From Staphylothermus marinus F1 (lineage in GTDB: Archaea; Thermoproteota; Thermoprotei_A; Sulfolobales; Desulfurococcaceae): a stretch of DNA of 32,000 bases. A model generated the notes under the pieces. The model made no database searches and was not told the DNA's origin. It saw nothing but the letters and a program-made list of their open reading frames with translations. The position numbers and the translations under genes are program-made. The DNA lies in assembly GCF_000015945.1 (NCBI RefSeq), contig NC_009033.1:990001-1022000 (forward strand), in the 5' to 3' direction. Of this stretch, positions 2,280 to 13,393 are shown piece by piece. Position 1 is the stretch's first letter; the number at the start of each line of letters is the position of its first letter.

Positions 2280-3656
2280 ATGGAACTACTAGTGATAGCG
2301 TTTTACTTATCTGTCCTATCCTATTACATAGGAGTTCTCATATACATGTTACCTCTACCATTTTATGGCTTAAAGAAATGGGCTCCGCAACTAATGGTTG
2401 ATGGTGTATTCTCAGCTATTCTAGTATTCTCATATACTTTCATTTTATGGCTAATAGATTACCTTGGAGAAGCTCTGGGGTCGGATTGGAACAGCTATTA
2501 TTCATGGTTTATAAACGAGATAAACATTATAGCTACAACTATTCTCATGCTGAAACTTATAGGTATCGGGCTATCCAGTATTGGTTTAGGATTTATTGCT
2601 AACTCTATGATTTCACCTCTTGTCTCAAGTTTAACTTATCTATTAATGTTTCTAGTTACGACATCAATACTAATAACCGCACTAGTAACATTAGCTCCAA
2701 CAATATTATCCCTAGGAATACTATTACATTCAGTTCCTTTTAGAATAACTAGGAGCAGTGGAGCTATGCTTATCTCGTTAGTAATAGTATTCAGTATAGG
2801 AACACCGTTAATGCCTAACTTTATAGATACAATTTCTCCACCAACTATTCTAGGAGTTAGTAGTGAAGGATTTGTTTTTGCAGAAATACATGTTTATGGA
2901 CACAACAATGTTGGTGTTTCTTATTGTTTATATGAAATATATAGTTTAGACGATAAGCTCCTAGCTAGGTATAGATCTGATCCTGACGGATTAATTAATG
3001 CATCAACTGTTGAAACAGGCATACCATATAGTGTGCAGAAAATTAAAATAGATGTTGCAGGTTATCATTATGAAACCATAATTGATCCTAGAGAATATTC
3101 TTCAAGAGGGGGAATAGTCAATATCACGATTACAATTAATAATCTATTAGTAATTAAACCTCTGAGATACATAGTATTAATGAATTATAATAACTTCAGC
3201 CTCCTCTACATAGATGATTCACTAACAATTCTCAATATTAATGCTACAGAAAATACATCGATAATAATTATTGGTTTAGGAAGTGACAGCTTCTCTGTAT
3301 CAGTAGATAATGTTCAAATAGAGCCTATCACTACATATTCTTATGAATGGGGCGGAATAGAGTTTCAAGCTGAAAAATATAGTTTATCCAGCGGAAACCA
3401 CTCAGTAGTGATTACATACACTTTATCCGGAACAGGTGAACCATTATTCGATGAAATATATTATGGAAGAAATACTTTAGGTATAGGAATGAACGATCTA
3501 ACTAACCTGGTTTACCCAATAACGATATTAATCTATAAACTATTCTTGGGACCAGTAATTTATTTATCAATTCTATTTTCAGCATCCCTAGCACTAGCTA
3601 AACTATTAGGTGGCTCATCTTCACGAATAGCCCGTATCGTGGTGACCGGGTTATGA
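2280..3656 (+). CDS. Polytopic membrane protein with a large beta-rich extracytoplasmic insert, VirB6/CedA-like candidate
   Basis: 458 aa. About 6 hydrophobic helices fall in residues 1-185 and one or two more at the C-terminus (PITILIYKLFLGPVIYLSILFSASLALA). Residues ~190-400 are non-hydrophobic, N/I/Y/S-rich and carry sequons (NAS, NIT, NFS, NAT, NTS, NHS). Its stop overlaps the next start (ATGA at 3653-3656). Confidence 0.5.
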   Translation: MELLVIAFYLSVLSYYIGVLIYMLPLPFYGLKKWAPQLMVDGVFSAILVFSYTFILWLIDYLGEALGSDWNSYYSWFINEINIIATTILMLKLIGIGLSSIGLGFIANSMISPLVSSLTYLLMFLVTTSILITALVTLAPTILSLGILLHSVPFRITRSSGAMLISLVIVFSIGTPLMPNFIDTISPPTILGVSSEGFVFAEIHVYGHNNVGVSYCLYEIYSLDDKLLARYRSDPDGLINASTVETGIPYSVQKIKIDVAGYHYETIIDPREYSSRGGIVNITITINNLLVIKPLRYIVLMNYNNFSLLYIDDSLTILNINATENTSIIIIGLGSDSFSVSVDNVQIEPITTYSYEWGGIEFQAEKYSLSSGNHSVVITYTLSGTGEPLFDEIYYGRNTLGIGMNDLTNLVYPITILIYKLFLGPVIYLSILFSASLALAKLLGGSSSRIARIVVTGL

Positions 3657-3823
3657 GTATAGCAGAGAAAATAATTTGGATAATGATAGTTTTATTCCCA
3701 ATACTTATTGTAATGTTGCTTGGTTCCCGCATTATAGGTGTTATATTATTATTGACTGTACCAATAATCGTTCTAAGAACTATTCTATGGTGGTATAATG
3801 AAAAAAATAGCAAAAATATTTGA
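3653..3823 (+). CDS. Unlisted 56-aa two-TM membrane protein (CedA2-like position)
   Basis: Hand translation gives MSIAEKIIWIMIVLFPILIVMLLGSRIIGVILLLTVPIIVLRTILWWYNEKNSKNI*. The ATG overlaps the upstream stop (ATGA). The 3' end overlaps the ATPase start by 26 nt. It is below the ORF-track size cut-off. The 71-aa minus-strand ORF 3598-3813 is its antisense shadow. Confidence 0.55.
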   Translation: MSIAEKIIWIMIVLFPILIVMLLGSRIIGVILLLTVPIIVLRTILWWYNEKNSKNI

Positions 3824-5471
3824 AAAAATAATAGGTGGAAAAGTAGAGTACAAAATAGATCCTCCAGACCTAATAGTATTAATGCGGGGAAGAGTAAATC
3901 TTATTAGATATCTTATAGCCGAAGAAGTTGATTATGGTATTAAAGAATTAAGTCCCGATAAAATGTTAATAATGATAAATATGTTTTCCGAACTATTAGA
4001 TGTATTACCTCCTTATTCAGAAGCTAAGATCATTAAAAGAAGAATGAGTATTGAAAAGCTTCTCAGAAAGATCAGCAATGAAATGATGAACCTACGTGCA
4101 ACATTGGATATAGTAGAAGAACCACATATTAAGAGACGAGCAGAAGTTAAACTGAAAATCTTAGAAGCACTCTACGAAAATATCGTTAGAAGTAAACCGA
4201 TTACTCGTGTTAACTTAGTCATTAAAATACGTGTTACCTCGAATAATATAAGCAATGCTAAACATTTAGCGGATGTTTACTCTAGTAAGACAATAGGAAT
4301 AATGCAAAATTACTTTGGAATTAAGATGAGAATGGTTAATCGAAGAAAGGAATTAATGGATATCCTGAAAAACGAACTAGGATTGTCCATTGAGACCAAT
4401 ATTAAATCAATAATAGTAGATAGCGAAAGATTATCAACAATGATGCCTTTACCCAAAAATAAAAAGCCTACAATGGAGAAAGAGGATGGTTTACCTATAG
4501 GAATAGATATTGAGACTGGATGGCCGGTAATAATACCTTATAAGTCATTTGATAAACACATTCTAATATTAGGCCCAACAGGTCGTGGTAAAACAACTCT
4601 TCTCGCATCAATGATCGAGGGTATAACTAGTTTGTCAAATATTCTAGTTTTCGCTATTGATTTTAAAGGAGACTTAGCAAATATGGTTTATAGTGAAAAC
4701 GTAGTGCATCTAACTCCTGACGATTACCCGATCAATATTCTTGTTATACCAAGCTTTTTCCAAGTTATTGATTGGTATTTAGCTGTTAGTGATGTATTAT
4801 CTAATGTTATAGGCGTTGATAAAGAGAATTTTATTAGAGTAATGAATAAGTTTGCAAACAATCATCAAGCAATAGATGGAAAAGACATATTATTTGATAA
4901 AGATTTATCATTATTATCTCCTTTAATAGAACTTATTACAAGTAAGCCTAAATATGAAGCATTAATGAAACATCTGAATAATCACATAGTTTTCGATCTA
5001 GGAAAATATGGAACAGCTTTCCAAAATGCTTATGGTGGAATTCTTATGTACATATATAAAAAACTAGCCTTCTCAACAAAGATGATCAGTAAACCTAAAC
5101 TTTTAATTGTAGATGAAGCTTGGAGAATAAGTCGTCTAAATGGTCTCGAAGAACTTGTTAAGGAGGGCCGTAGTAAGCATTTAGGAGTCGTTCTAGCAAC
5201 TCAGAATCCTAGAGATATACCAAGAGAAATAATGGAAAATACTCATTTACTCATAATGTTTGGTTCGAGAAACGAGGATTACTTGAGAGATGCAGAGAGA
5301 TTTCTAGGATTGCCTCGAGAAATTGTTAAAAAGCTTGCTTATCTTGGTGTGGGCGAAGCACTTCTTCTAAACGCTCTAGATCCTCATCCGGTTATTCTAC
5401 GTGTTAGAACACCAACATTTATGAGAGAAAAATATAAACATATTATAAGCGATGATGAAAGGCGGGCTTAA
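3798..5471 (+). CDS. VirB4/TrbE/CedB-like (FtsK-HerA superfamily) transport ATPase
   Basis: 557 aa. Walker A is LILGPTGRGKTTLL, Walker B is KLLIVDEAWR, and a downstream VLATQNPRDIP motif is typical of VirB4/HerA-type P-loop NTPases. The ~230-aa N-terminal domain is helical and has no TM segment. Confidence 0.7.
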   Translation: MKKIAKIFEKIIGGKVEYKIDPPDLIVLMRGRVNLIRYLIAEEVDYGIKELSPDKMLIMINMFSELLDVLPPYSEAKIIKRRMSIEKLLRKISNEMMNLRATLDIVEEPHIKRRAEVKLKILEALYENIVRSKPITRVNLVIKIRVTSNNISNAKHLADVYSSKTIGIMQNYFGIKMRMVNRRKELMDILKNELGLSIETNIKSIIVDSERLSTMMPLPKNKKPTMEKEDGLPIGIDIETGWPVIIPYKSFDKHILILGPTGRGKTTLLASMIEGITSLSNILVFAIDFKGDLANMVYSENVVHLTPDDYPINILVIPSFFQVIDWYLAVSDVLSNVIGVDKENFIRVMNKFANNHQAIDGKDILFDKDLSLLSPLIELITSKPKYEALMKHLNNHIVFDLGKYGTAFQNAYGGILMYIYKKLAFSTKMISKPKLLIVDEAWRISRLNGLEELVKEGRSKHLGVVLATQNPRDIPREIMENTHLLIMFGSRNEDYLRDAERFLGLPREIVKKLAYLGVGEALLLNALDPHPVILRVRTPTFMREKYKHIISDDERRA

Positions 5472-5624: not shown

Positions 5625-5735
5625 ATGGGTGGAAGACAAAAAACAAGTTTGTTTATGACAAAGGAGAAAGTGACTGAGAGAATGGCTCGGGAAGCTAGGG
5701 AGAAAACAAAAGCTAAAGGTAAGAAGCGTAGATGA
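5625..5735 (+). CDS. Unlisted 36-aa highly basic protein
   Basis: Sequence is MGGRQKTSLFMTKEKVTERMAREAREKTKAKGKKRR*. GAGAGGTGAG lies 5 nt upstream of the ATG. The stop overlaps the next start (ATGA at 5732-5735). Confidence 0.45.
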   Translation: MGGRQKTSLFMTKEKVTERMAREAREKTKAKGKKRR

Positions 5736-6571
5736 AGACTTCTAGGAAAATTCTCGTTGCATTACCAACAAGTATTTTAAGTACCGAATCAAGCCTTCTC
5801 CTTAAAACCATTAAAACATATCAGGTCATCAGGTACTCCTCTATTTTTGGCGTATCAGAAATAGTATTCTTCCGCGACCCCTTCACAGATTTTTCTCAAC
5901 ATAGGAAATATTCTGTCTTAATAGAGAAAATATGGCGATACCTATTAACCCCTCCTTATCTGCGAAGAAAACTTATTCCTAAAGATCCGGACCTAAAATT
6001 TGTAGGATTATTGCCGCCACTGAGACTTAGTACTTTCGATGTGAGCCGTAATGGTCGTGTTGGGGAGAAGAGATTAGGTCTTATCTATAGGGAGAAAAAC
6101 AAGTTGTTGGCTGATATAGGGCTTCCTAGACCTTATAGGATAGAAGCTGGAAATTGTAAGCCAGGCGATATAGGGTATGTTGAAATAGTTGATGTTAATA
6201 CTAGGAGAGCAATATGTTTAGATGTAGAACCATATAGGGGCCCTATTCTTGCGTTTGCGGATAGTTTACAAGAAGTATTAGAAGAATATAGGAAAACGGT
6301 AGATCTCATAATCGCTACTAGCAAGTATGGGAAAATCCCAAGTCATAAAGAATTAGCAGGTGTTAAAGGGAAGACAATAATAATATTATTCGGGGGTCCG
6401 CATAGAGGATTATACGATATAGCTAAGAAGGAAGGGTTTATTCTGGAGAATAAAGTTGATAAAGTATGGAATACCATACCTGAGCAAATGGTTAAAACTA
6501 TAAGGAGCGAGGAAGCATTAATATCTACACTAGCAGTAGTTAACATGTTTATTTATGGAGAGAACTTATAA
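5732..6571 (+). CDS. SPOUT-class (DUF171/COG2106-type) putative RNA methyltransferase
   Basis: N-terminal LVALPTSILSTESSLLLKTIKTYQVIRYSSIFGVSEIVFF and C-terminal NTIPEQMVKTIRSEEALISTLAVVN resemble the DUF171 family. From memory, a member (MTH1) also sits directly upstream of rpl3 in Methanothermobacter. Confidence 0.65.
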   Translation: MKTSRKILVALPTSILSTESSLLLKTIKTYQVIRYSSIFGVSEIVFFRDPFTDFSQHRKYSVLIEKIWRYLLTPPYLRRKLIPKDPDLKFVGLLPPLRLSTFDVSRNGRVGEKRLGLIYREKNKLLADIGLPRPYRIEAGNCKPGDIGYVEIVDVNTRRAICLDVEPYRGPILAFADSLQEVLEEYRKTVDLIIATSKYGKIPSHKELAGVKGKTIIILFGGPHRGLYDIAKKEGFILENKVDKVWNTIPEQMVKTIRSEEALISTLAVVNMFIYGENL

Positions 6572-6615
6572 TACCCTATGTAATGTATGTATGCAGAGAT
6601 TAGCAGGTGAAGATA

Positions 6616-7803
6616 ATGGGGCATAGAAAATATAGTGCGCCACGACATGGCAGTTTAGGAGTTAGACCTAGGAAACGGGCTGCTAAAATAGTGCCTAGAA
6701 TAAGAAGTTGGCCTACACAGTCATGGTTTGATTTATTAGTTGAGAAACTGGGAGATGAAGCAGTAAACAAGGGGATCGCTCCTAAACCAGTACTTCTAGG
6801 ATATGTTGCTTATAAGGCTGGAATGAGTCATGCAATAATAATTGATGATAGACCCCACACATTTACTTCTGGTAAAGAAATAGCCATTCCTGTAACAGTA
6901 CTCGATGCTCCTCCAATACTGATTCTAGGGCTACGAGGATACAAGATTCACCCAATGCATGGTCTTCTATCATTCGGCGAAGTATGGAGAAGCCCTGTGG
7001 AGGCGTTAAAGGAGCTATACGAGAAAATATATAGTGATAACCCGTTCATTAATCTTGGAGCAAAAGATATTGTGAGAAAATACTTGAAAGGATTAAGAAA
7101 GGTTAATCCAGGACTAGTAAAGCCTGAGCCACATAGTGAATATGGATTTAAATTCTTAGAAAATAATTGGAAGGAAAAACTTGAACGATTAAAAGCAGCT
7201 GAACTAGCAGATATTAGAGTAATTGCATCAACAATACCGGTATTATCCGGTATAGGTAAGAAAAAACCCGAGATAATCGAGATAAAAATTGGTGGTGGAA
7301 CACTAAGCGAAAGAATAGATTACGCCGAAAAACTCCTAGGCAACTATGTAACTGTAGATCAAGTATTTAGAGAGGGACAATTCATAGATATAATAGGTGT
7401 TACGAAAGGTAAGGGGTTCCAGGGAGTAATAAAGAGATTTGGAGTCAAAGAGCTTCCACGCTGGCATAAACATAGGAAGGGTAGTAGAAAAATTGGTTCT
7501 AGAAGCCCTGGTTTCGGCACTATGAGCGAGACTCCTCAGCCAGGACAAATGGGCTTCCATAGGAGAACAGAATATAATAAGAGGATCATAAAAATAGGCA
7601 TTAATGGATGGGAAGTAACGCCTAAAGGAGGATTCTTAGGATACGGCATAGTTTATGGACCATACATAATGCTTCATGGAAGTATTATTGGGCCTAGAAA
7701 GAGATTATTAGTATTAAGACATCCTATTAGGCCTCCTTCCTGGTATCCTCTAGAAGCTCCCCAAATAATCTATTATAGTCATGAAAGCAAACAAGGAGTC
7801 TAA
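6616..7803 (+). CDS. rpl3: 50S ribosomal protein L3 (uL3)
   Basis: N-terminus is [22 protein letters not shown]. The [22 protein letters not shown] region fits uL3. The ATG at 6616 is preferred over the track GTG at 6607 because AGGTGA (6605-6610) is the SD. Confidence 0.93.
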
Positions 7804-7818
7804 ACTGGGTGAAGAATA

Positions 7819-8634
7819 ATGCCTTGGACAATACTTATCCCATTTAAGCTTGAGAGACAAGAAACATATGTATTTAGCTCTGACGGTGAAAAAGTAGAAG
7901 AGATTACTTTACCTCCAATATTTAGTTTACCTGTTAGAAAAGACTTGATCCGGAGAGCGTTTCTATCAGCATTTACATCAATGCTTCAACCAAAAGGCAG
8001 GGACCCATTAGCTGGTAAGAGAACAACTGCTAGAAGCTGGGGTGTTGGTAGAGGATTAGCGAGAGTGCCAAGGCTACCCAATAGTAGGGCAGCATTCATA
8101 TCTTTTGCTAGAGGAGGACATGCAGCTTTTCCACCCAGACCAGATGAAAGAATACATGAGAGAATTAATAAACGTGAAAAAGCATATGCAGTAGCATCAG
8201 CAATTGCAGCTACTGCTAAAGTAGACCTTGTTAGGGGTCGTGGACACGTATTCCAACAAGATAAACTACCGGTTGTGCTTCTAGATGATGTTGAGGATAA
8301 GATTAGTAAGGCTAGAGACGCTAAAGAGCTTCTAATAAAGCTTGGCTTATGGAGCGATATTGTTAGGAGTTATGAGAGAATAAGAATTCGTGCAGGCAAA
8401 GGTAAGATGCGTGGTAGAAGATATGTTGAGCCAAGAAGCATATTGTTTGTTGTAACAAGCTATGATAAACCATTCGCTAAAGCTGTTAGAAACTTTCCAG
8501 GAGTAGATGTTGCTACACCTAATAATCTAGGCATACTGCATCTAGCACCAGGAGGTGTACCTGGTAGATTAACGGTCTTTACCCGTTCAGCCATCGAAGA
8601 TATTAGTAGAAAATATGAGGTGCGCACGTTATGA
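7819..8634 (+). CDS. rpl4: 50S ribosomal protein L4 (uL4)
   Basis: Sequence (..[29 protein letters not shown]..) and operon position fit uL4. SD GGGTGA at 7807-7812. Confidence 0.92.
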
Positions 8635-8906
8635 GCATGGATGAAGGAAGACTATATAAAATCATTATCAGACCAGTACACTCTGAGAAAGCATTAAATC
8701 TCATAGATAAAGAAAACACATTAACATTTATTGTTGATAGAAACGCGTCTAAGAAGGACATTAAAGACGCTGTTGAACTAGTATTTGGAGTGAAGGTATT
8801 AAAAGTCAGAACTCTCATAACAAGTAGAGGAGAAAAGAAGGCATATGTAAAGCTAGCTCCAGAACACCGTGCAAGCGAAATAGCTTCACAACTAGGATTA
8901 ATCTAG
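8631..8906 (+). CDS. rpl23: 50S ribosomal protein L23 (uL23)
   Basis: Contains [42 protein letters not shown] overlap with the rpl4 stop. Confidence 0.93.
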
Positions 8907-8934: not shown

Positions 8935-9654
8935 ATGGGTAAAAGAATACTTCCACAAAGAATGGGTAGAGGTACACCAACATTTAGAAGCCCTAGTCAT
9001 AGAAGAGTGGGGCCAGCAAAATATCCGCCACTAAAACTAGACAGAACTATAAAGGGAAAAATAATTGATCTATTACATGATCCTGGAAGATGGGTTCCAC
9101 TAGCCAAAATAGTATTAGAGGATGGAACAACATTCCTAACACCGGCTGTTGAGGGAATGTATGTTGGACAAATAATAGAAATAGGACCAGACGCACATAT
9201 ATCCAATGGAAACATTTTACCGATCGGGAAAATACCGGAAGGAACACAAATTGCCAACATTGAGAAAAGACCTGGCGATGGAGGAAAATTCGTTAGATCA
9301 TCTGGTACATACGCATTAATAGTTGGAAGAGCAGGGACAAAGACTCAGGTTCAACTACCTAGTGGTAAAATAATAGAAGTACCAAATAATGCAAGAGCAA
9401 CAATAGGAGTAATTGCTGGAGGCGGTAGAGACGAAAAACCATTATTAAAAGCAGGGAATGCTTATCATAAATGGAAAGTTAAAGCAAAGAAATGGCCTAA
9501 AGTCAGAGGAGTAGCTATGAATGCTGTAAGCCACCCACATGGTGGAGGCAGCCATCAACACGTAGGTAAGCCGTCAACAGTTGCTAGGGAAACACCTCCA
9601 GGTAGAAAAGTCGGGCACATCGCTGCTAGAAGGACTGGTAGACGTAAAGGTTAA
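8935..9654 (+). CDS. rpl2: 50S ribosomal protein L2 (uL2)
   Basis: Contains [22 protein letters not shown] and [14 protein letters not shown]. Confidence 0.95.
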
Positions 9655-10004
9655 TCTTTATAATTTATACATTTCTTCAACAGATCAATTTTGCTTTGTG
9701 GAACATATATTATTTTCTTAAGTGGCTGTATTTCCGAAACAACATATAGGTGATCATTGAATCTTTTTCGACCAATTATTTTAATATATGTTTTTCCGCT
9801 ACTTAATGAAAGGCATTTAATATATTTTTGCCTATGGATAACTATCCTCCTTAAAAATACATCATAGTGTTTACTGATTTTTCTACTCTTAAATATATTC
9901 TCTCTTGAAATAATACATATTTTCACCTTATTATCTTCGCAGACTAGATCAAACCATACTAGATCATTGCCTTCAATGTAGAAGCATCTATATATTACTG
10001 TCAA
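9651..10004 (-). CDS. Hypothetical 117-aa protein, opposite strand, inside the r-protein operon
   Basis: Only a TTG start (10004-10002) is available, with GGTGG 7 nt upstream. Its stop overlaps the rpl2 stop in a shared TTAA. It is Lys/Ile-rich with 5 Cys. I recognise no motif. Confidence 0.4.
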
Positions 10005-10025
10005 TTAACAACCACCGTTAATCAA

Positions 10026-10034
10026 TATTTATAA
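10026..10034. promoter_or_regulatory. Near-palindromic TATA element (TATTTATAA) shared by divergent genes
   Basis: Its centre lies ~26 nt from the TTG of the minus-strand ORF and ~40 nt from the ATG at 10070. Confidence 0.35.
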
Positions 10035-10069
10035 CACTCCTTAACAAATACTATGGCTCTGGGATAGAT

Positions 10070-10987
10070 ATGTCAGAGAAAAATATAGAAGATCCTATTG
10101 TTAAAAAGGTACATGAAATCTATGGTTCGGTAATAAAGAAAAGAACCCCTATTCGAAACCCTGATTTAATGTTGAAGGTACTACGTGAAGAATATAAGCT
10201 AGTTGTTAAACCATACATAGTTTACTTAACTGTTGCAGCATTTATGAATAGTAGACCAGTCTTATATGAGGGCCCGCCTGGAACAGGCAAGACCGAGATA
10301 GGTGAAGCAATCTTAACTTTATGGAGTGGGAAATCAGCATTTATACTTCCATGTAGCGAAAACTATGATGAATATCGGGTTATAGGAGACTTTCACCCAG
10401 CAATGGCTATGGCGAAGGGATTTAACGAAGAAAGCTTTATTCCCCGCCCACTTTTAGCTGCTCTAATACTAGATACAGGAGTTCTTATAGATGAAATTAG
10501 GAGAAGCAATGAAGATTTTCAAAACTTATTACTCGACATAATAGATAAACGAAGAATAATTATTCCAGAACTTAAAAAAGTATATGTTCAAAGAGGCCAT
10601 GGATTCCAAATAATATTCACAAGTAACCCGCTGGACATAGCACAAAGTGATCTTAGCGACGCATTTCTACGAAGAGTTGTTAGAATAGAATTTAAGTATC
10701 CAACTATAGAGGAAGAAATCGAGATTATTAAGCTTAGACTTGGCGATTTAATGAATAAAATAAACGATAACTTAGTAATGAACGCCCTGAAGATCATTAG
10801 GGTTCTCAGAGAAAAAGCGATCTACAAACCGGGCACAGCTGATCTAGTTTCATGGCTAACACTTACTGCTCTCCTAGCAGAATCTAAGAAAAAGAAAAAA
10901 GCATCAATAGAAGACTTAAGAGAAGCTGGATACGCTGTACTATACAAGAACACTGAAGACGAGGAGTTACTAAATGAGGTTCTCTAG
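10070..10987 (+). CDS. MoxR/AAA_5-type AAA+ ATPase
   Basis: Walker A is LYEGPPGTGKTEIG. Walker B is VLIDEIRRSNEDFQNLLLDIID. Sensor-1 is IIFTSNPLD. The arginine region is LSDAFLRRV. Confidence 0.85.
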   Translation: MSEKNIEDPIVKKVHEIYGSVIKKRTPIRNPDLMLKVLREEYKLVVKPYIVYLTVAAFMNSRPVLYEGPPGTGKTEIGEAILTLWSGKSAFILPCSENYDEYRVIGDFHPAMAMAKGFNEESFIPRPLLAALILDTGVLIDEIRRSNEDFQNLLLDIIDKRRIIIPELKKVYVQRGHGFQIIFTSNPLDIAQSDLSDAFLRRVVRIEFKYPTIEEEIEIIKLRLGDLMNKINDNLVMNALKIIRVLREKAIYKPGTADLVSWLTLTALLAESKKKKKASIEDLREAGYAVLYKNTEDEELLNEVL

Positions 10988-12911
10988 CGAAAATAGCATG
11001 GATAATGAGAAAATCATAGAACATATTAAGAATGTTGTTTTAGAAGGTATAGAGAAATATAAAAATGTTGGACAATCTGGATCATTATCTATAGATAGAG
11101 CGGAGTTGTTTATTAAAATCTATATAACATTATCTGAACTTGTAAAAAATAGGCTTGATAAATCAGTTATTTTAGAGGAATTTTATAGATCATTTCTTCC
11201 TGAGAAAAAGTATAGACTTGTAGAAGATGAGACAAAGATATCGTATGATAGTAAAATGAGCATACTAAGAAGGATCCACGGTAAAAACAAGATAACGGTC
11301 TCCGAGATATTTCGGTATAGTGCATCCTCATCAGATATTCTAGACTATATTTGGTTAAGGAAAAACAAACTCCTACTTCGCGGACGAGACGGTAAACTAG
11401 TGATAAACAAAAGGATCTATAGTAAACAATTCGATAATGAGGCTACGAGAAATCTAGAGTTGAAAGACGTATATAAGTACCTAGATGAAATACCAAGCGT
11501 TTTATGGTCTCGCATACTCACCTCTAGTTTTCTCGAAAAAATTAATAATAATGAACTATTAGGTTTTCTATCAAAGTTTTACGGTTACAGTTCCAAGGTT
11601 AACAGGAGATTATTGAGTGAACTGCGTAGAAGACTTGCAAACGGCTGGGATCCCAACTGGTTTGAATGGAAAAAAATAAGTCGAATTATAGAAGATAAAA
11701 GTTTGAAAACAGAAAAATATATGGGACCATATAGTCTTCAATGGAGTACCCCGAAAAATCTAGATGTAAGGAAAATAATTGATGATCTAGAAAACATGCC
11801 TTTAAAAGAGAGATGGAAAATCATTTCTAAAATATATAAGAACAAAAATTTGTTAACTATACTTAAAAAGCTTGATCCCATATCTTTATCCTCAATAGGC
11901 AGTCTGAACAGAGTGCCTGATTTGAAAGACAAAATCCTTCTTGGAAAAAGTTTAGCGAACATTATTACTTACATGATTACAGGGGATGAATCATATTTAA
12001 ACTATTCAATGTATTTTGTTGAAAAAATTAATCCTGACAGCTTAGAACCCAATTTTAGACCAATATATAGATCAATAATTAGTGGTGATAAGAAGAAATT
12101 ATTATATTATCTCGGAGTAATTATGCCAATTAGTTCCGTTGAATTTATTACTGCTAAAATATGGGATATTATGAGTTCTAATACAGGAATAAACAGGGAG
12201 CAATTATTGAGAGCTATAAGGATAGGATATGAAATTTTAAAGTATACCGCATCTCTTTCTGGAACTATGTTAAGTAAACGTAAAAAGATAAGTTTTATTC
12301 GTGGACGTATGGATGTTAGGAAAACAGTTTTCAATTATTCCAGATTTAACTATAACATTGCAAAACGTGATAAGGAGAAAGAATTTAGGGTTAACACTTT
12401 AATTGATATTAGTGGTTCTATGATAAAACACTCATTATGGGCTATATTTTCACTAGCATCAATTATGCCTATCGTGAAAAACATAATCTTATTTTCAGAC
12501 AAAGTATTCATAAATAAGCCCCCGTCTTCTCTAAATCGTGGTTTAATAGTAAATTATCTTGAGAAACTATTTATTGAGGGCTTTAAAGGCTATACAAATA
12601 TTAGTTTAGCTCTTAGAACAGCTGAGAAACTATCTAAAAGTAATGATTACATCTTATTATTTAGCGACTTAGAACAAACAGTTTCAGACACAAAGCCATG
12701 GATTATTGCAGAAAAACTCATCAATAAAAACAAGGTTAATATAGTAATTTTTACACCACCATATCATGATGTCGAAACAGCTAATATGATGGAGAGAATT
12801 GGATGTATTGTTGTTAGAACTAAATCTATAAACGACATTTTTAAATGGTTTAAGAGAGGGCTAAACTTTAAAATACGGAGTAAACTTATCCATGTTAGAG
12901 GGCTGAGGTAA
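10974..12911 (+). CDS. Protein with a C-terminal von Willebrand factor A (VWA) domain and intact MIDAS; N-terminal ~430 aa unassigned
   Basis: MIDAS DxSxS is LIDISGSM, followed by the YTNISLAL threonine and LLFSDLEQT aspartate. The ATG at 10974 (GAGGAG 7 nt upstream) overlaps the ATPase gene by 14 nt. An alternative ATG lies at 10998. Confidence 0.75.
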   Translation: MRFSSENSMDNEKIIEHIKNVVLEGIEKYKNVGQSGSLSIDRAELFIKIYITLSELVKNRLDKSVILEEFYRSFLPEKKYRLVEDETKISYDSKMSILRRIHGKNKITVSEIFRYSASSSDILDYIWLRKNKLLLRGRDGKLVINKRIYSKQFDNEATRNLELKDVYKYLDEIPSVLWSRILTSSFLEKINNNELLGFLSKFYGYSSKVNRRLLSELRRRLANGWDPNWFEWKKISRIIEDKSLKTEKYMGPYSLQWSTPKNLDVRKIIDDLENMPLKERWKIISKIYKNKNLLTILKKLDPISLSSIGSLNRVPDLKDKILLGKSLANIITYMITGDESYLNYSMYFVEKINPDSLEPNFRPIYRSIISGDKKKLLYYLGVIMPISSVEFITAKIWDIMSSNTGINREQLLRAIRIGYEILKYTASLSGTMLSKRKKISFIRGRMDVRKTVFNYSRFNYNIAKRDKEKEFRVNTLIDISGSMIKHSLWAIFSLASIMPIVKNIILFSDKVFINKPPSSLNRGLIVNYLEKLFIEGFKGYTNISLALRTAEKLSKSNDYILLFSDLEQTVSDTKPWIIAEKLINKNKVNIVIFTPPYHDVETANMMERIGCIVVRTKSINDIFKWFKRGLNFKIRSKLIHVRGLR

Positions 12912-12921
12912 TTATATAAAA
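12912..12921 (+). promoter_or_regulatory. Candidate TATA box (TTATATAAAA) restarting the distal r-protein operon
   Basis: Starts directly after the VWA gene stop (12909-12911). It lies ~45 nt upstream of the rps19 start, so the SD GAGGTG would fall in the predicted leader. Confidence 0.45.
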
Positions 12922-12961
12922 TGTTACGGAGCAGTATCTATACTAGCGAGAGGTGCTTAAT

Positions 12962-13393
12962 TTGGCGATAGAAATAGAAATACCGCCTGAATGGAAGAAG
13001 TTTAGATATAGAGGTAAGACTCTAGAAGAATTATTGAATATGCCAATGGATGAGTTCATAGGGTTACTTCCTGCTAGGCAGAGACGTAGCTTAAAACGTG
13101 GATTAACAATGGCGCAGGTGAAGTTGTTAGCTAAGATTAGAAAAGTAAGACAGAAGAAGCTTACAGGTAAAAAAGCAATTATTAAAACACATGTTCGAGA
13201 CATGATTATTCTTCCCGAAATGATTGGTTTAACTATAGCTGTCTATAATGGTAAAGAATTCATACCTGTCAGAATAGTTCCAGAGATGATCGGTCATTAT
13301 CTAGGAGAATTTAGTCCTACAACGAAGAGGGTACAGCATGGAGAACCAGGTCTAAAAGCTACTCGTAGCAGTATGTTTATATCATTAAAGTAA
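12962..13393 (+). CDS. rps19: 30S ribosomal protein S19 (uS19)
   Basis: Contains [37 protein letters not shown]. The TTG at 12962 is preferred because the track GTG at 12953 lies inside the SD AGGTG (12951-12955). Confidence 0.9.

Follow-up and report, generated by a model that had tools for sequence, protein, structure and literature searches.

A MoxR-type ATPase and vWA protein gene pair next to S19 in the ribosomal superoperon of Staphylothermus marinus and its relatives: a probable remodelling machine with a candidate translation client

Introduction

In the archaeon Staphylothermus marinus F1, the genes for ribosomal proteins L2 (uL2) and S19 (uS19) are separated by 3307 nucleotides (nt), positions 9655-12961 of the 32,000-nt stretch of DNA analyzed here (NC_009033.1, positions 990,001 to 1,022,000; hereafter the window). 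This interval holds a pair of genes that encode a MoxR/AAA_5 ATPase of 305 amino acids (aa) and a 645-aa partner, Smar_1022, which ends in a domain of the von Willebrand factor A (vWA) type and is referred to below as the VWA protein. We propose that the pair is very probably a remodelling machine composed of a MoxR hexamer and a vWA adaptor, because every sequence feature that such a machine requires is present and under strong purifying selection. The pair is old and vertically inherited, and its association with S19 leads us, tentatively, to look for its client in the translation apparatus.

The assembly factors of archaeal ribosomes are poorly known, and we know of no energy-consuming archaeal counterpart of the eukaryotic AAA+ remodellers Rea1, Rix7, and Drg1. 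MoxR/vWA pairs are known as such; what is distinct here is the narrow distribution, the new adaptor domain, the accessory small gene, and the association with S19 in the ribosomal superoperon. In the literature searched, we found no mention of the pair, of where it sits in the ribosomal operon, or of its association with S19.

The pair at the L2-S19 junction of Desulfurococcaceae

A scan of a genome collection yielded 80 genomic loci around L2 homologues, in which the proteins of the window were mapped, and homologous proteins were looked up independently in S. hellenicus, D. mucosus, several metagenome-assembled genomes (MAGs), and metagenome contigs; loci are cited below by L numbers. Some 30 loci of Desulfurococcaceae (25 distinct) have the order L2-ATPase-VWA-S19, with or without a small gene after L2; among them are Staphylothermus, Thermogladius, Desulfurococcus, and a contig whose ATPase is named as that of a Thermosphaera. 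The order holds even where the identity of the VWA protein drops to 28-33%. Every Desulfurococcaceae locus with an L2 identity of at least 72% and enough contig has the pair between L2 and S19, with gaps of 2.8-4.4 kb, whereas the gap is 29-153 nt in 37 archaeal loci from outside the family in which L2 and S19 were both detected and share a strand (Nitrososphaeria, Thermoplasmata, Methanomassiliicoccales, ANME-1, and others). One MAG labelled Desulfurococcaceae (L034) has L2 and S19 adjacent, without the pair.

The original prediction, made from the window alone, described the pair as splitting a universally conserved junction. The split is indeed unusual when set against the 37 other loci, but the junction is not inviolate: it is broken in three MAGs labelled Sulfolobales (L035-L037), and in Pyrodictiaceae L2 and S19 have been relocated together.

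Rearrangements of the same string were seen in several loci. In L035-L037 (for example L036:570-7735) the order is L22 (-), RtcB and a 134-aa open reading frame (ORF) (+), S19 and a SPOUT methyltransferase (-), and L3-L4-L23-L2 (+). L2 is flanked by neither L23 nor S19 in the Asgard (Freya/Jord) loci L053, L041, L043, L046, L048, and L049; the first of these, from a Freyarchaeota chromosome, has the order L2-L3-L4 with a large opposite-strand gene upstream (L053:6986-9660), a different rearrangement. A DPANN MAG labelled Nanopusillaceae (L089, GCA_038897695.1) carries the string CedA-CedB-MT3-L3-L4-L23-L2-ATPase-VWA that is typical of Desulfurococcaceae. This contig is probably mis-binned host DNA, since the ATPase that it encodes has the same sequence as one that bears the name Thermosphaera sp.

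The pair and S19 in rearranged operons

About 50 loci with the pair fall into six arrangement types (Table 1). Wherever the contig extends beyond the ATPase gene, in all six types, the VWA gene follows it directly. S19 lies 0.1-3.9 kb from the pair in five of the types (A, B, D, E, and F), while L2 does not recur in this way; in the sixth, type C, the genes for isoleucyl-tRNA synthetase (IleRS) and arginyl-tRNA synthetase (ArgRS) flank the pair. In type B, L2 and S19 were relocated together behind CedA/CedB, and the pair lies between this string and the main one, after IleRS, in convergent orientation with S19 and 0.6-1.7 kb away from it. Proximity to S19 thus survived at least four different rearrangements, although the types are related by descent and are not independent trials. 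The original prediction had named scattering of orthologous pairs over unrelated loci as the observation that would speak against a ribosomal role. What we found instead is a position between L2 and S19 in about 30 loci, a position near S19 in four other types, and flanking aminoacyl-tRNA synthetase genes in the last. The comparison of genomes strengthens the proposed link to translation.

Table 1. Arrangement types of loci that contain the gene pair
Type	Taxon or loci	Gene order
A	Desulfurococcaceae	L3-L4-L23-L2-(small gene)-ATPase-VWA-S19-L22...
B	Pyrodictiaceae including Pyrolobus fumarii; L086, L088, L092, L093	main string L3-L4-L23-L22-S3 (full in L088)
C	Caldisphaeraceae-like; L090, L105, L110	TtuA-like, radical S-adenosylmethionine (SAM), IleRS, Cas4-like, ATPase, VWA, ArgRS
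D	L091, L095, L097, L114	ATPase-VWA, ~3.8 kb of unrelated genes, isolated S19 on same strand
E	L099	PCNA ... ATPase-VWA-S19 (108 nt after VWA)-EamA-L22-S3-L29...; no L2 within 8 kb upstream
F	L103	small divergent gene-ATPase-VWA-(SpoIIM-like, opposite strand)-S19-TatD

Further neighbours of the pair are related to tRNA or translation. A PP-loop ATPase gene (ATP_bind_3; TtuA/Ncs6-like) stands directly after the VWA gene in three of the four type B loci (L086:9913-10839, L092:10933-11883, and L093:11007-11828), and Caldisphaeraceae-type loci have a TtuA-like gene (L090:888-1886) and a radical-SAM gene upstream of IleRS.

A narrow and vertically inherited family

In pairwise comparisons over the 25 distinct loci, ATPase divergence and L2 divergence are correlated (r=0.82). 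The slopes against L2 are 1.25 for the ATPase, which is indistinguishable from the 1.21 of L22, 0.84 for S19, and 2.83 for the VWA protein. When a divergent ATPase was used as the query, identities fell from 54% straight to 29% with nothing between, and the matches at 25-29% belong to ordinary bacterial MoxR-proper/DUF58 operons; the archaeal ATPases are therefore an orthologous group of their own. When a VWA-protein profile was run exhaustively with HMMER against 1.84 billion representatives, only 132 relatives were recovered. Full-length members make up 78 of these, mostly ~610-710 aa, and the rest are shorter fragments or weaker vWA matches. Named relatives are assigned to Desulfurococcales, Pyrodictium, Caldisphaeraceae, or "Thermoprotei," and no Asgard-labelled member was seen among the HMMER relatives. 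A profile search of a word-indexed protein database added no further relatives of the VWA protein.

Base composition was considered as a sign of foreign origin and did not hold up. The GC content of the VWA gene is 0.29-0.32, compared with 0.36-0.42 for the genes of ribosomal proteins (r-proteins), but that of the other non-ribosomal genes in the window is 0.27-0.33, so there is no evidence of recent transfer. Relatives of the pair on viral contigs were not found. PADLOC had no match for either the VWA protein or the small gene; for the ATPase, it gave only weak sub-threshold matches to AAA modules. The shared position, the L2-tracking divergence, the ordinary GC content, and the lack of viral relatives and of meaningful PADLOC matches together speak against both a mobile defence island and a recent landing.

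These results bear on one explanation that the original prediction had offered, namely, that the pair is a vWA-MoxR nucleoside triphosphate-dependent conflict (anti-virus) system that landed in the r-protein operon. In its favor, several conflict systems are built around pairs of this kind (PMC7159879), evolution of the VWA partner is 2.8 times faster than that of L2, the small gene that goes with the pair is variable, and the sub-threshold PADLOC matches are to AAA modules. The conflict systems described by Kaur et al. (2020), however, have extra effector or regulatory parts and a patchy, mobile spread, while the pair has no effector, protease, STAND, or beta-propeller components and is fixed in the chromosome, with one copy seen per locus. 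[quoted passage not shown] We therefore consider a defence system extremely improbable, and the idea of a gene pair that "landed" does not fit an arrangement shared by about 30 loci.

The ATPase has the features of the MoxR/AAA_5 class

The ATPase is a single AAA_5 module. Its Walker A motif spans G68-T75 (nt 10271-10294) and its Walker B residues are D141-E142 (nt 10490-10495); sensor 1 is N186, and arginines R201/R202 follow. All of these are invariant or nearly so in 21 orthologues of types A to D, which share about 100 invariant positions. A near-invariant segment between Walker A and Walker B reads LPCSENYDEYRVIGDFHP...FIPRPLLAA in these orthologues and would, judged by its position, correspond to the helix-2 insert/pore region that touches the vWA "finger" in NorQ/NorD (PMC13036017). 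The ATPase thus has every feature of the MoxR/AAA_5 class: the Walker motifs, sensor 1, the arginines, a helix-2-insert-like segment (conserved stretch between Walker A and B, CSENYDEYRVIGDFHP), and an adjacent gene for a vWA cofactor. The motifs GPPGTGKT, VLIDEIRR, FTSNP, and AFLRR listed in the original prediction were all present at their coordinates, as was the MIDAS of the partner, and the prediction was right both in placing the first protein among the MoxR/AAA_5 ATPases and in giving the second a C-terminal vWA domain whose MIDAS is complete.

Among solved structures, NorQ (2e-7) and CbbQ (5e-7) are the closest ones with a single module, and E. coli YehL aligns to the ATPase with an hhalign E value of 1.7e-12. 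The nearest curated model is NCBIfam NF047784, the "MadB family AAA-type ATPase" (MadB_ATPase), which scores 92 bits here and 92-103 bits in three lineages, yet this is far below its equivalog cutoff of 475 bits; nothing relevant to the function of MadB was found in the literature searched. The GvpN model scores 48 bits for the ATPase of the window, the low end of a range of 48-60 bits.

The VWA protein joins a new N-terminal domain to a vWA domain with a complete MIDAS

The MIDAS of the VWA protein consists of D478-I-S480-G-S482 (nt 12405-12419), T541 (12594-12596), and D565 (12666-12668), and its residues D478, S480, S482, T541, and D565 are invariant in 75 family representatives. Pfam VWA_CoxE matches 73 of the 75, with the S. 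marinus protein itself at 25.9 bits against a cutoff of 26.4, and the vWA domain aligns to YehP (hhalign E=9e-10). The vWA domain is preceded by a conserved basic segment, RGRxDVRKTxYN (~443-455), which is poorly ordered in the AlphaFold2 model and is a possible pore "finger" as in NorD (PMC13036017, PMC9976466).

AlphaFold2 models gave mean confidence (pLDDT) values of 81 for the full-length protein and 83.7 for the N-terminal 432 aa alone. In the model, helices at residues 11-74 are followed by a winged-helix-like alpha/beta unit (~88-162), by helical repeats (163-428), and by a canonical vWA domain. The winged-helix-like unit, so called from predicted secondary structure only, holds the near-invariant "DILDYIWLRKxGYL," the most conserved N-terminal motif of the family; D121, D124, Y125, I126, W127, L128, and R129 are invariant. 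This segment had no Pfam match at E<=10, and the N-terminal domain as a whole had none either. A Foldseek search of the PDB with the N-terminal domain alone likewise gave no significant match, the best being generic solenoids (E=0.068). As far as the tools used can see, the N-terminal ~430 aa are new, and we presume that they form the domain for client specificity.

A Ro60/TROVE-like architecture was also considered and rejected. Ro60 is the best Foldseek match of the full-length model (E=1.5e-6, TM score ~0.2), ahead of many isolated vWA domains that include TRAP, BatB, and ANTXR, and it is also the best sequence-profile match in the PDB (E=0.002). With the N-terminal domain alone, Ro60 was not among the best 50 matches listed, so the resemblance is confined to the vWA domain, and Pfam TROVE matched none of the 75 family members.

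The accessory small gene

A small gene on the opposite strand lies between L2 and the ATPase gene. The original prediction regarded it as an orphan, but it is kept at 32-79% identity in the subclade near Staphylothermus, always divergent from the ATPase gene. Alignable ORFs of 122-143 aa occupy the same position and strand in a second Desulfurococcaceae subclade, and in these two subclades the start-to-start distance to the ATPase gene is 46-155 nt. A divergent gene of 141-156 aa takes the corresponding position in Pyrodictiaceae-type loci and in L103. Homology between the copy in L103 and those of the Pyrodictiaceae is clear (hhalign probability 96.8%), and one of these genes matches DUF5673 (E=9e-6). 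Similarity between the Staphylothermus and Pyrodictiaceae types is weak (hhalign E=5e-4, probability 32%, 102 columns). Thermogladius, D. mucosus, L002/L003, and L033 lack the small gene, which is therefore accessory.

Transcription signals and spacers

A TATA-like box, "atatttataac" (~10026-10036), stands ~35-45 nt before the ATG of the ATPase gene, and we infer from its sequence and position that it may act as a promoter. The spacer between L2 and the ATPase gene is 86-160 nt where empty; otherwise it holds the divergent small gene, sometimes together with a Cren7-like mini-gene, or a TnpB gene. The ATPase gene probably has its own promoter, because other genes, such as the small gene and the TnpB gene of L032, occupy this spacer.

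Two of these occupants deserve mention in their own right. In L032, from a Desulfurococcus sp. MAG, a 405-aa TnpB/Cas12f-like (IS200/IS605-type) gene stands between L2 and the ATPase gene (L032:7736-8953, - strand), which shows that the spacer tolerates insertions. In one subclade, the spacer contains a 51-58-aa ORF on the + strand (MPKCPKCGAEV...KCPNGHYFRAKAE; L022:5965-6120, L026:5040-5216, and L030:7973-8134) that gives a Pfam match to the chromatin protein Cren7 (E=4.7e-14) and shows a zinc-ribbon-like CPxC pair at its N terminus.

Downstream of the pair, the spacer between the VWA gene and S19 is 41-60 nt in most type A loci, compared with 0-28 nt between neighbouring r-protein genes. Usually it holds an A/T-rich box just past the VWA stop and a GGTG-type Shine-Dalgarno sequence before S19; in the window these are a TATA-like "ttatataaaa" (12912-12921) and a Shine-Dalgarno-like GAGGTG (12947-12952), followed by TGCTTA (12954-12959). 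Read in this way, the sequences would allow S19 to be transcribed either by read-through from the pair or from a promoter specific to S19.

In 14 of the 25 distinct spacers (the window, L002, L011-L013, L025, L027-L029, L032, L033, L087, L109, and L112), the hexamer TGCTTA stands 8-36 nt upstream of the S19 start, where the chance expectation is ~0.01 per spacer. In 6 of the 25, it is also found no more than 120 nt upstream of the start of the ATPase gene. As a general promoter or initiator motif it was rejected, since it is not enriched in the window (18 matches versus 25.9 expected). It may be a shared element of the 5' untranslated region or a promoter-proximal one.

Gene layout of the window

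The features of the window are listed in Table 2. The ATPase and VWA genes overlap by 14 nt, and they overlap or abut in other lineages. S19 starts with a TTG at 12962, with an in-frame GTG at 12953, and is followed by L22, S3, L29, Rpp29, S17, L14, and so on.

Table 2. Features of the window around the gene pair
Feature	Position (nt)	Strand	Basis or remark
SPOUT RNA methyltransferase gene	5732-6571		
L3, L4, L23 genes	6607-8906		
L2 (uL2), upstream flank	8935-9654	+	Pfam Ribosomal_L2_C E=2.7e-46; closes the L3-L4-L23-L2 string
Small divergent gene, 117 aa, TTG start	9651-10004	-	ORF listing
Divergent intergenic region, 65 nt	10005-10069		holds TATA-like box, read from sequence
AAA_5/MoxR ATPase, 305 aa	10070-10987	+	Pfam AAA_5 E=5e-18 (score above cutoff)
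VWA protein Smar_1022, 645 aa	10974-12911	+	VWA_CoxE E=8e-6, residues 429-569
VWA protein N-terminal region, 432 aa	10974-12269	+	
C-terminal vWA domain, residues ~440-630	12291-12863	+	complete MIDAS
VWA-S19 spacer, 50 nt	12912-12961		between VWA stop and S19 start
S19 (uS19), downstream flank	12962-13393	+	Pfam Ribosomal_S19 1.3e-35; recurrent neighbour of the pair

The window has a HerA/FtsK-like ATPase gene (3798-5471, Pfam HerA_C/DUF87) upstream of its ribosomal string, and the equivalent upstream genes in relatives (L089, L086, L088, and L093) match CedA1 and a HerA-like (CedB-type) ATPase. In Desulfurococcaceae this CedA/CedB pair lies before MT3-L3, but in Pyrodictiaceae it lies before the relocated L2-S19, and so it marks the site where the operon was cut. 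A 458-aa ORF (2280-3656) had no Pfam match. L3 is 395-398 aa in type A loci of Desulfurococcaceae (window 6607-7803; L001-L005 and L087) and 346-347 aa in the Pyrodictiaceae-type loci L086, L088, L092, and L093, a lineage-specific expansion of ~50 aa.

Proposed mechanism and client

The hexamer-adaptor mechanism that we infer for the pair follows NorQ/NorD and CbbQ/CbbO. In the characterized pairs, one vWA adaptor binds each MoxR hexamer via a pore finger, the MIDAS binds an acidic residue of the client, the N-terminal domain gives specificity, and ATP hydrolysis twists or stretches the adaptor (PMC9976466, PMC13036017). By analogy, the 305-aa ATPase would form a hexameric ring on which one 645-aa partner would dock through its vWA domain. 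The invariant MIDAS would grip an acidic residue of a client protein, the novel helical and winged-helix-like N-terminal domain would supply specificity for that client, and ATP hydrolysis would pull or twist it into or out of a complex.

With gene context as our only guide, we tentatively prefer a component of the translation apparatus as the client, which may well be S19 or an S19-containing intermediate of small-subunit assembly or repair. We favor it because the linkage to S19 persists, because other neighbours are translation-related too (L2, IleRS, ArgRS, PP-loop/TtuA-like, and RNA-methyltransferase genes), and because the ATPase is conserved much as r-proteins are; all three point to a client that is universal and itself highly conserved. 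Taken further, the archaeal ribosome would here have its first dedicated AAA+ remodeller, a functional analogue of Rea1/midasin encoded by two genes, which would load, release, or proof-read S19 or the small-subunit head during assembly or the repair of heat damage. This would explain why the pair stayed with S19 through several operon rearrangements, but in this specific form we regard the proposal as rather unlikely.

Several observations weigh against a translation client. Any insertion into the superoperon has translation genes as neighbours automatically, and shared descent can explain the proximity to S19 without a function. In type C loci (Acidilobales-type, Caldisphaeraceae-like), there are no r-protein genes within 8 kb of the pair, and in the three Sulfolobales-labelled MAGs the L2-S19 junction is broken with no pair nearby. 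S19 may have its own promoter, given the TATA-like box after the VWA stop, and co-transcription with S19 is not general, since the pair is on the opposite strand in Pyrodictiaceae and other genes intervene in types D and F. Neither Foldseek nor Pfam detected an RNA- or ribosome-binding homologue of the N-terminal domain. The vWA domain, moreover, is CoxE-like, and relatives of CoxD/CoxE mature a metalloenzyme (PMC3893208).

The main rival reading is that the same machine acts on a non-ribosomal client, for example a metalloenzyme in the manner of CoxD/CoxE, NorQ/NorD, or CbbQ/CbbO, and that its location is a frozen accident. The ancestral insertion between L2 and S19 would have made a transcription-unit boundary before S19; later rearrangements would have cut there, and inheritance would have kept the pair near S19. 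The CoxE type of the vWA domain is consistent with this, as is the standing of NorQ and CbbQ as the closest solved single-module ATPases, and activation of enzymes is what the characterized proteins of these MoxR subfamilies do (PMC3893208, PMC9976466). The ATPase gene and S19 each have a TATA-like box upstream, insertion sequences and other genes are tolerated in the L2-ATPase spacer, the pair faces S19 from the other strand in Pyrodictiaceae, and S19 is displaced without the pair in L035-L037. However, no gene for a candidate client enzyme adjoins the pair in about 50 loci of six arrangement types, where the recurring neighbours are instead S19 and the other translation-related genes named above. 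Conservation of the ATPase at the level of r-proteins is unusual for an activase of an accessory enzyme, and the linkage to S19 is found in five types, four of them reshuffled relative to the window. A frozen accident is a possibility to be taken seriously, if on balance doubtful.

What emerges is a MoxR/vWA pair of hyperthermophilic Desulfurococcales that is sharply delimited and inherited vertically, and with it a concrete and testable hypothesis about the client. If that client is ribosomal, the solution of an AAA_5 ring plus a MIDAS was recruited for ribosome biogenesis or repair outside the eukaryotes as well. If it is unrelated to the ribosome, the locus is a clean case of an ancient insertion that made a lasting breakpoint in a highly conserved gene string.

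Comparison with known systems

The same two-gene plan is seen in NorQ/NorD and CbbQ/CbbO, of the CGN subfamily of MoxR proteins, where an AAA_5 ATPase of ~270-310 aa is followed by a ~650-aa (~70-kDa) partner. Like the VWA protein, NorD and CbbO have a variable N-terminal domain, a linker, and a C-terminal vWA domain with DxSxS-T-D. The pair differs from both in the low identity of its ATPase and in its conserved neighbours, which are S19, L2, and aminoacyl-tRNA synthetases; no nitric oxide reductase (norCB) or Rubisco (cbbLS) genes occur in any annotated neighbourhood of the pair. CbbO and NorD were not among the Foldseek matches listed, and homology of the N-terminal domain to that of either was not found. 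Since these client genes are missing nearby and the N-terminal domain is unrelated, membership in the CGN family is excluded. An activase of the NorQ/NorD or CbbQ/CbbO type had been named in the original prediction, and what survives of that suggestion is a possible action of this general kind on some non-ribosomal client.

The vWA domain shares its Pfam family, VWA_CoxE, with CoxD/CoxE of the APE2220 subfamily, and no CO-dehydrogenase genes were found near the pair. E. coli YehL and YehP give the significant profile matches reported above, but YehP is without the 430-aa N-terminal domain to which the vWA domain of the pair is fused. A further link to this system, through YehM, was raised by one Pyrodictiaceae member and rejected as a trait of the family. 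YehM was confirmed as DUF5682, which only 2 of the 75 family members match, weakly, and the family profile compared with E. coli YehM gave a probability of 0.2%. A SWIM (YehQ) gene, another hallmark of YehLMPQ, was present in no neighbourhood. Ro60/Rsr, which acts in RNA quality control, resembles the VWA protein in having a helical-repeat region followed by a vWA domain with a MIDAS. The TROVE ring of Ro60 nonetheless sets the two apart, as both the low TM score and the missing TROVE match indicate, and to our knowledge Ro60 does not pair with a MoxR ATPase.

Midasin (Rea1/Mdn1), the eukaryotic remodeller of pre-60S particles, belongs to the same AAA_5/helix-2-insert clade and likewise combines an AAA ring with a MIDAS. 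The original prediction spoke of a split, midasin-like remodeller; the analogy is good only at the level of domain logic, and a specific kinship does not follow. Midasin is the top solved structure for the ATPase (E ~5e-20 with a single sequence and 9e-22 with a profile) because the scores of several AAA modules add up; its best single module in yeast reaches 17.6 bits, below NorQ (33.8) and CbbQ (32.7), and midasin-specific homology was rejected on this ground. That the pair is a true relative or precursor of midasin, a split archaeal form of it, is suggested by the top total score and by the pairing of an AAA_5, helix-2-insert ATPase with a MIDAS (PMC7159879). We nevertheless judge such an ancestry to be very improbable. 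A single midasin polypeptide of ~4900 aa combines six AAA modules with the MIDAS, whereas the pair has one module and carries its MIDAS on a separate protein. Its vWA domain is CoxE/YehP-like, with Mdn1 ranking only 42nd among the Foldseek matches of the VWA model, and the family is confined to one crenarchaeal clade with no Asgard-labelled members seen. The likeness to midasin is therefore one of a possible mode of action, not of family membership, and the genomic context of the pair suggests a ribosome-related client, as for midasin.

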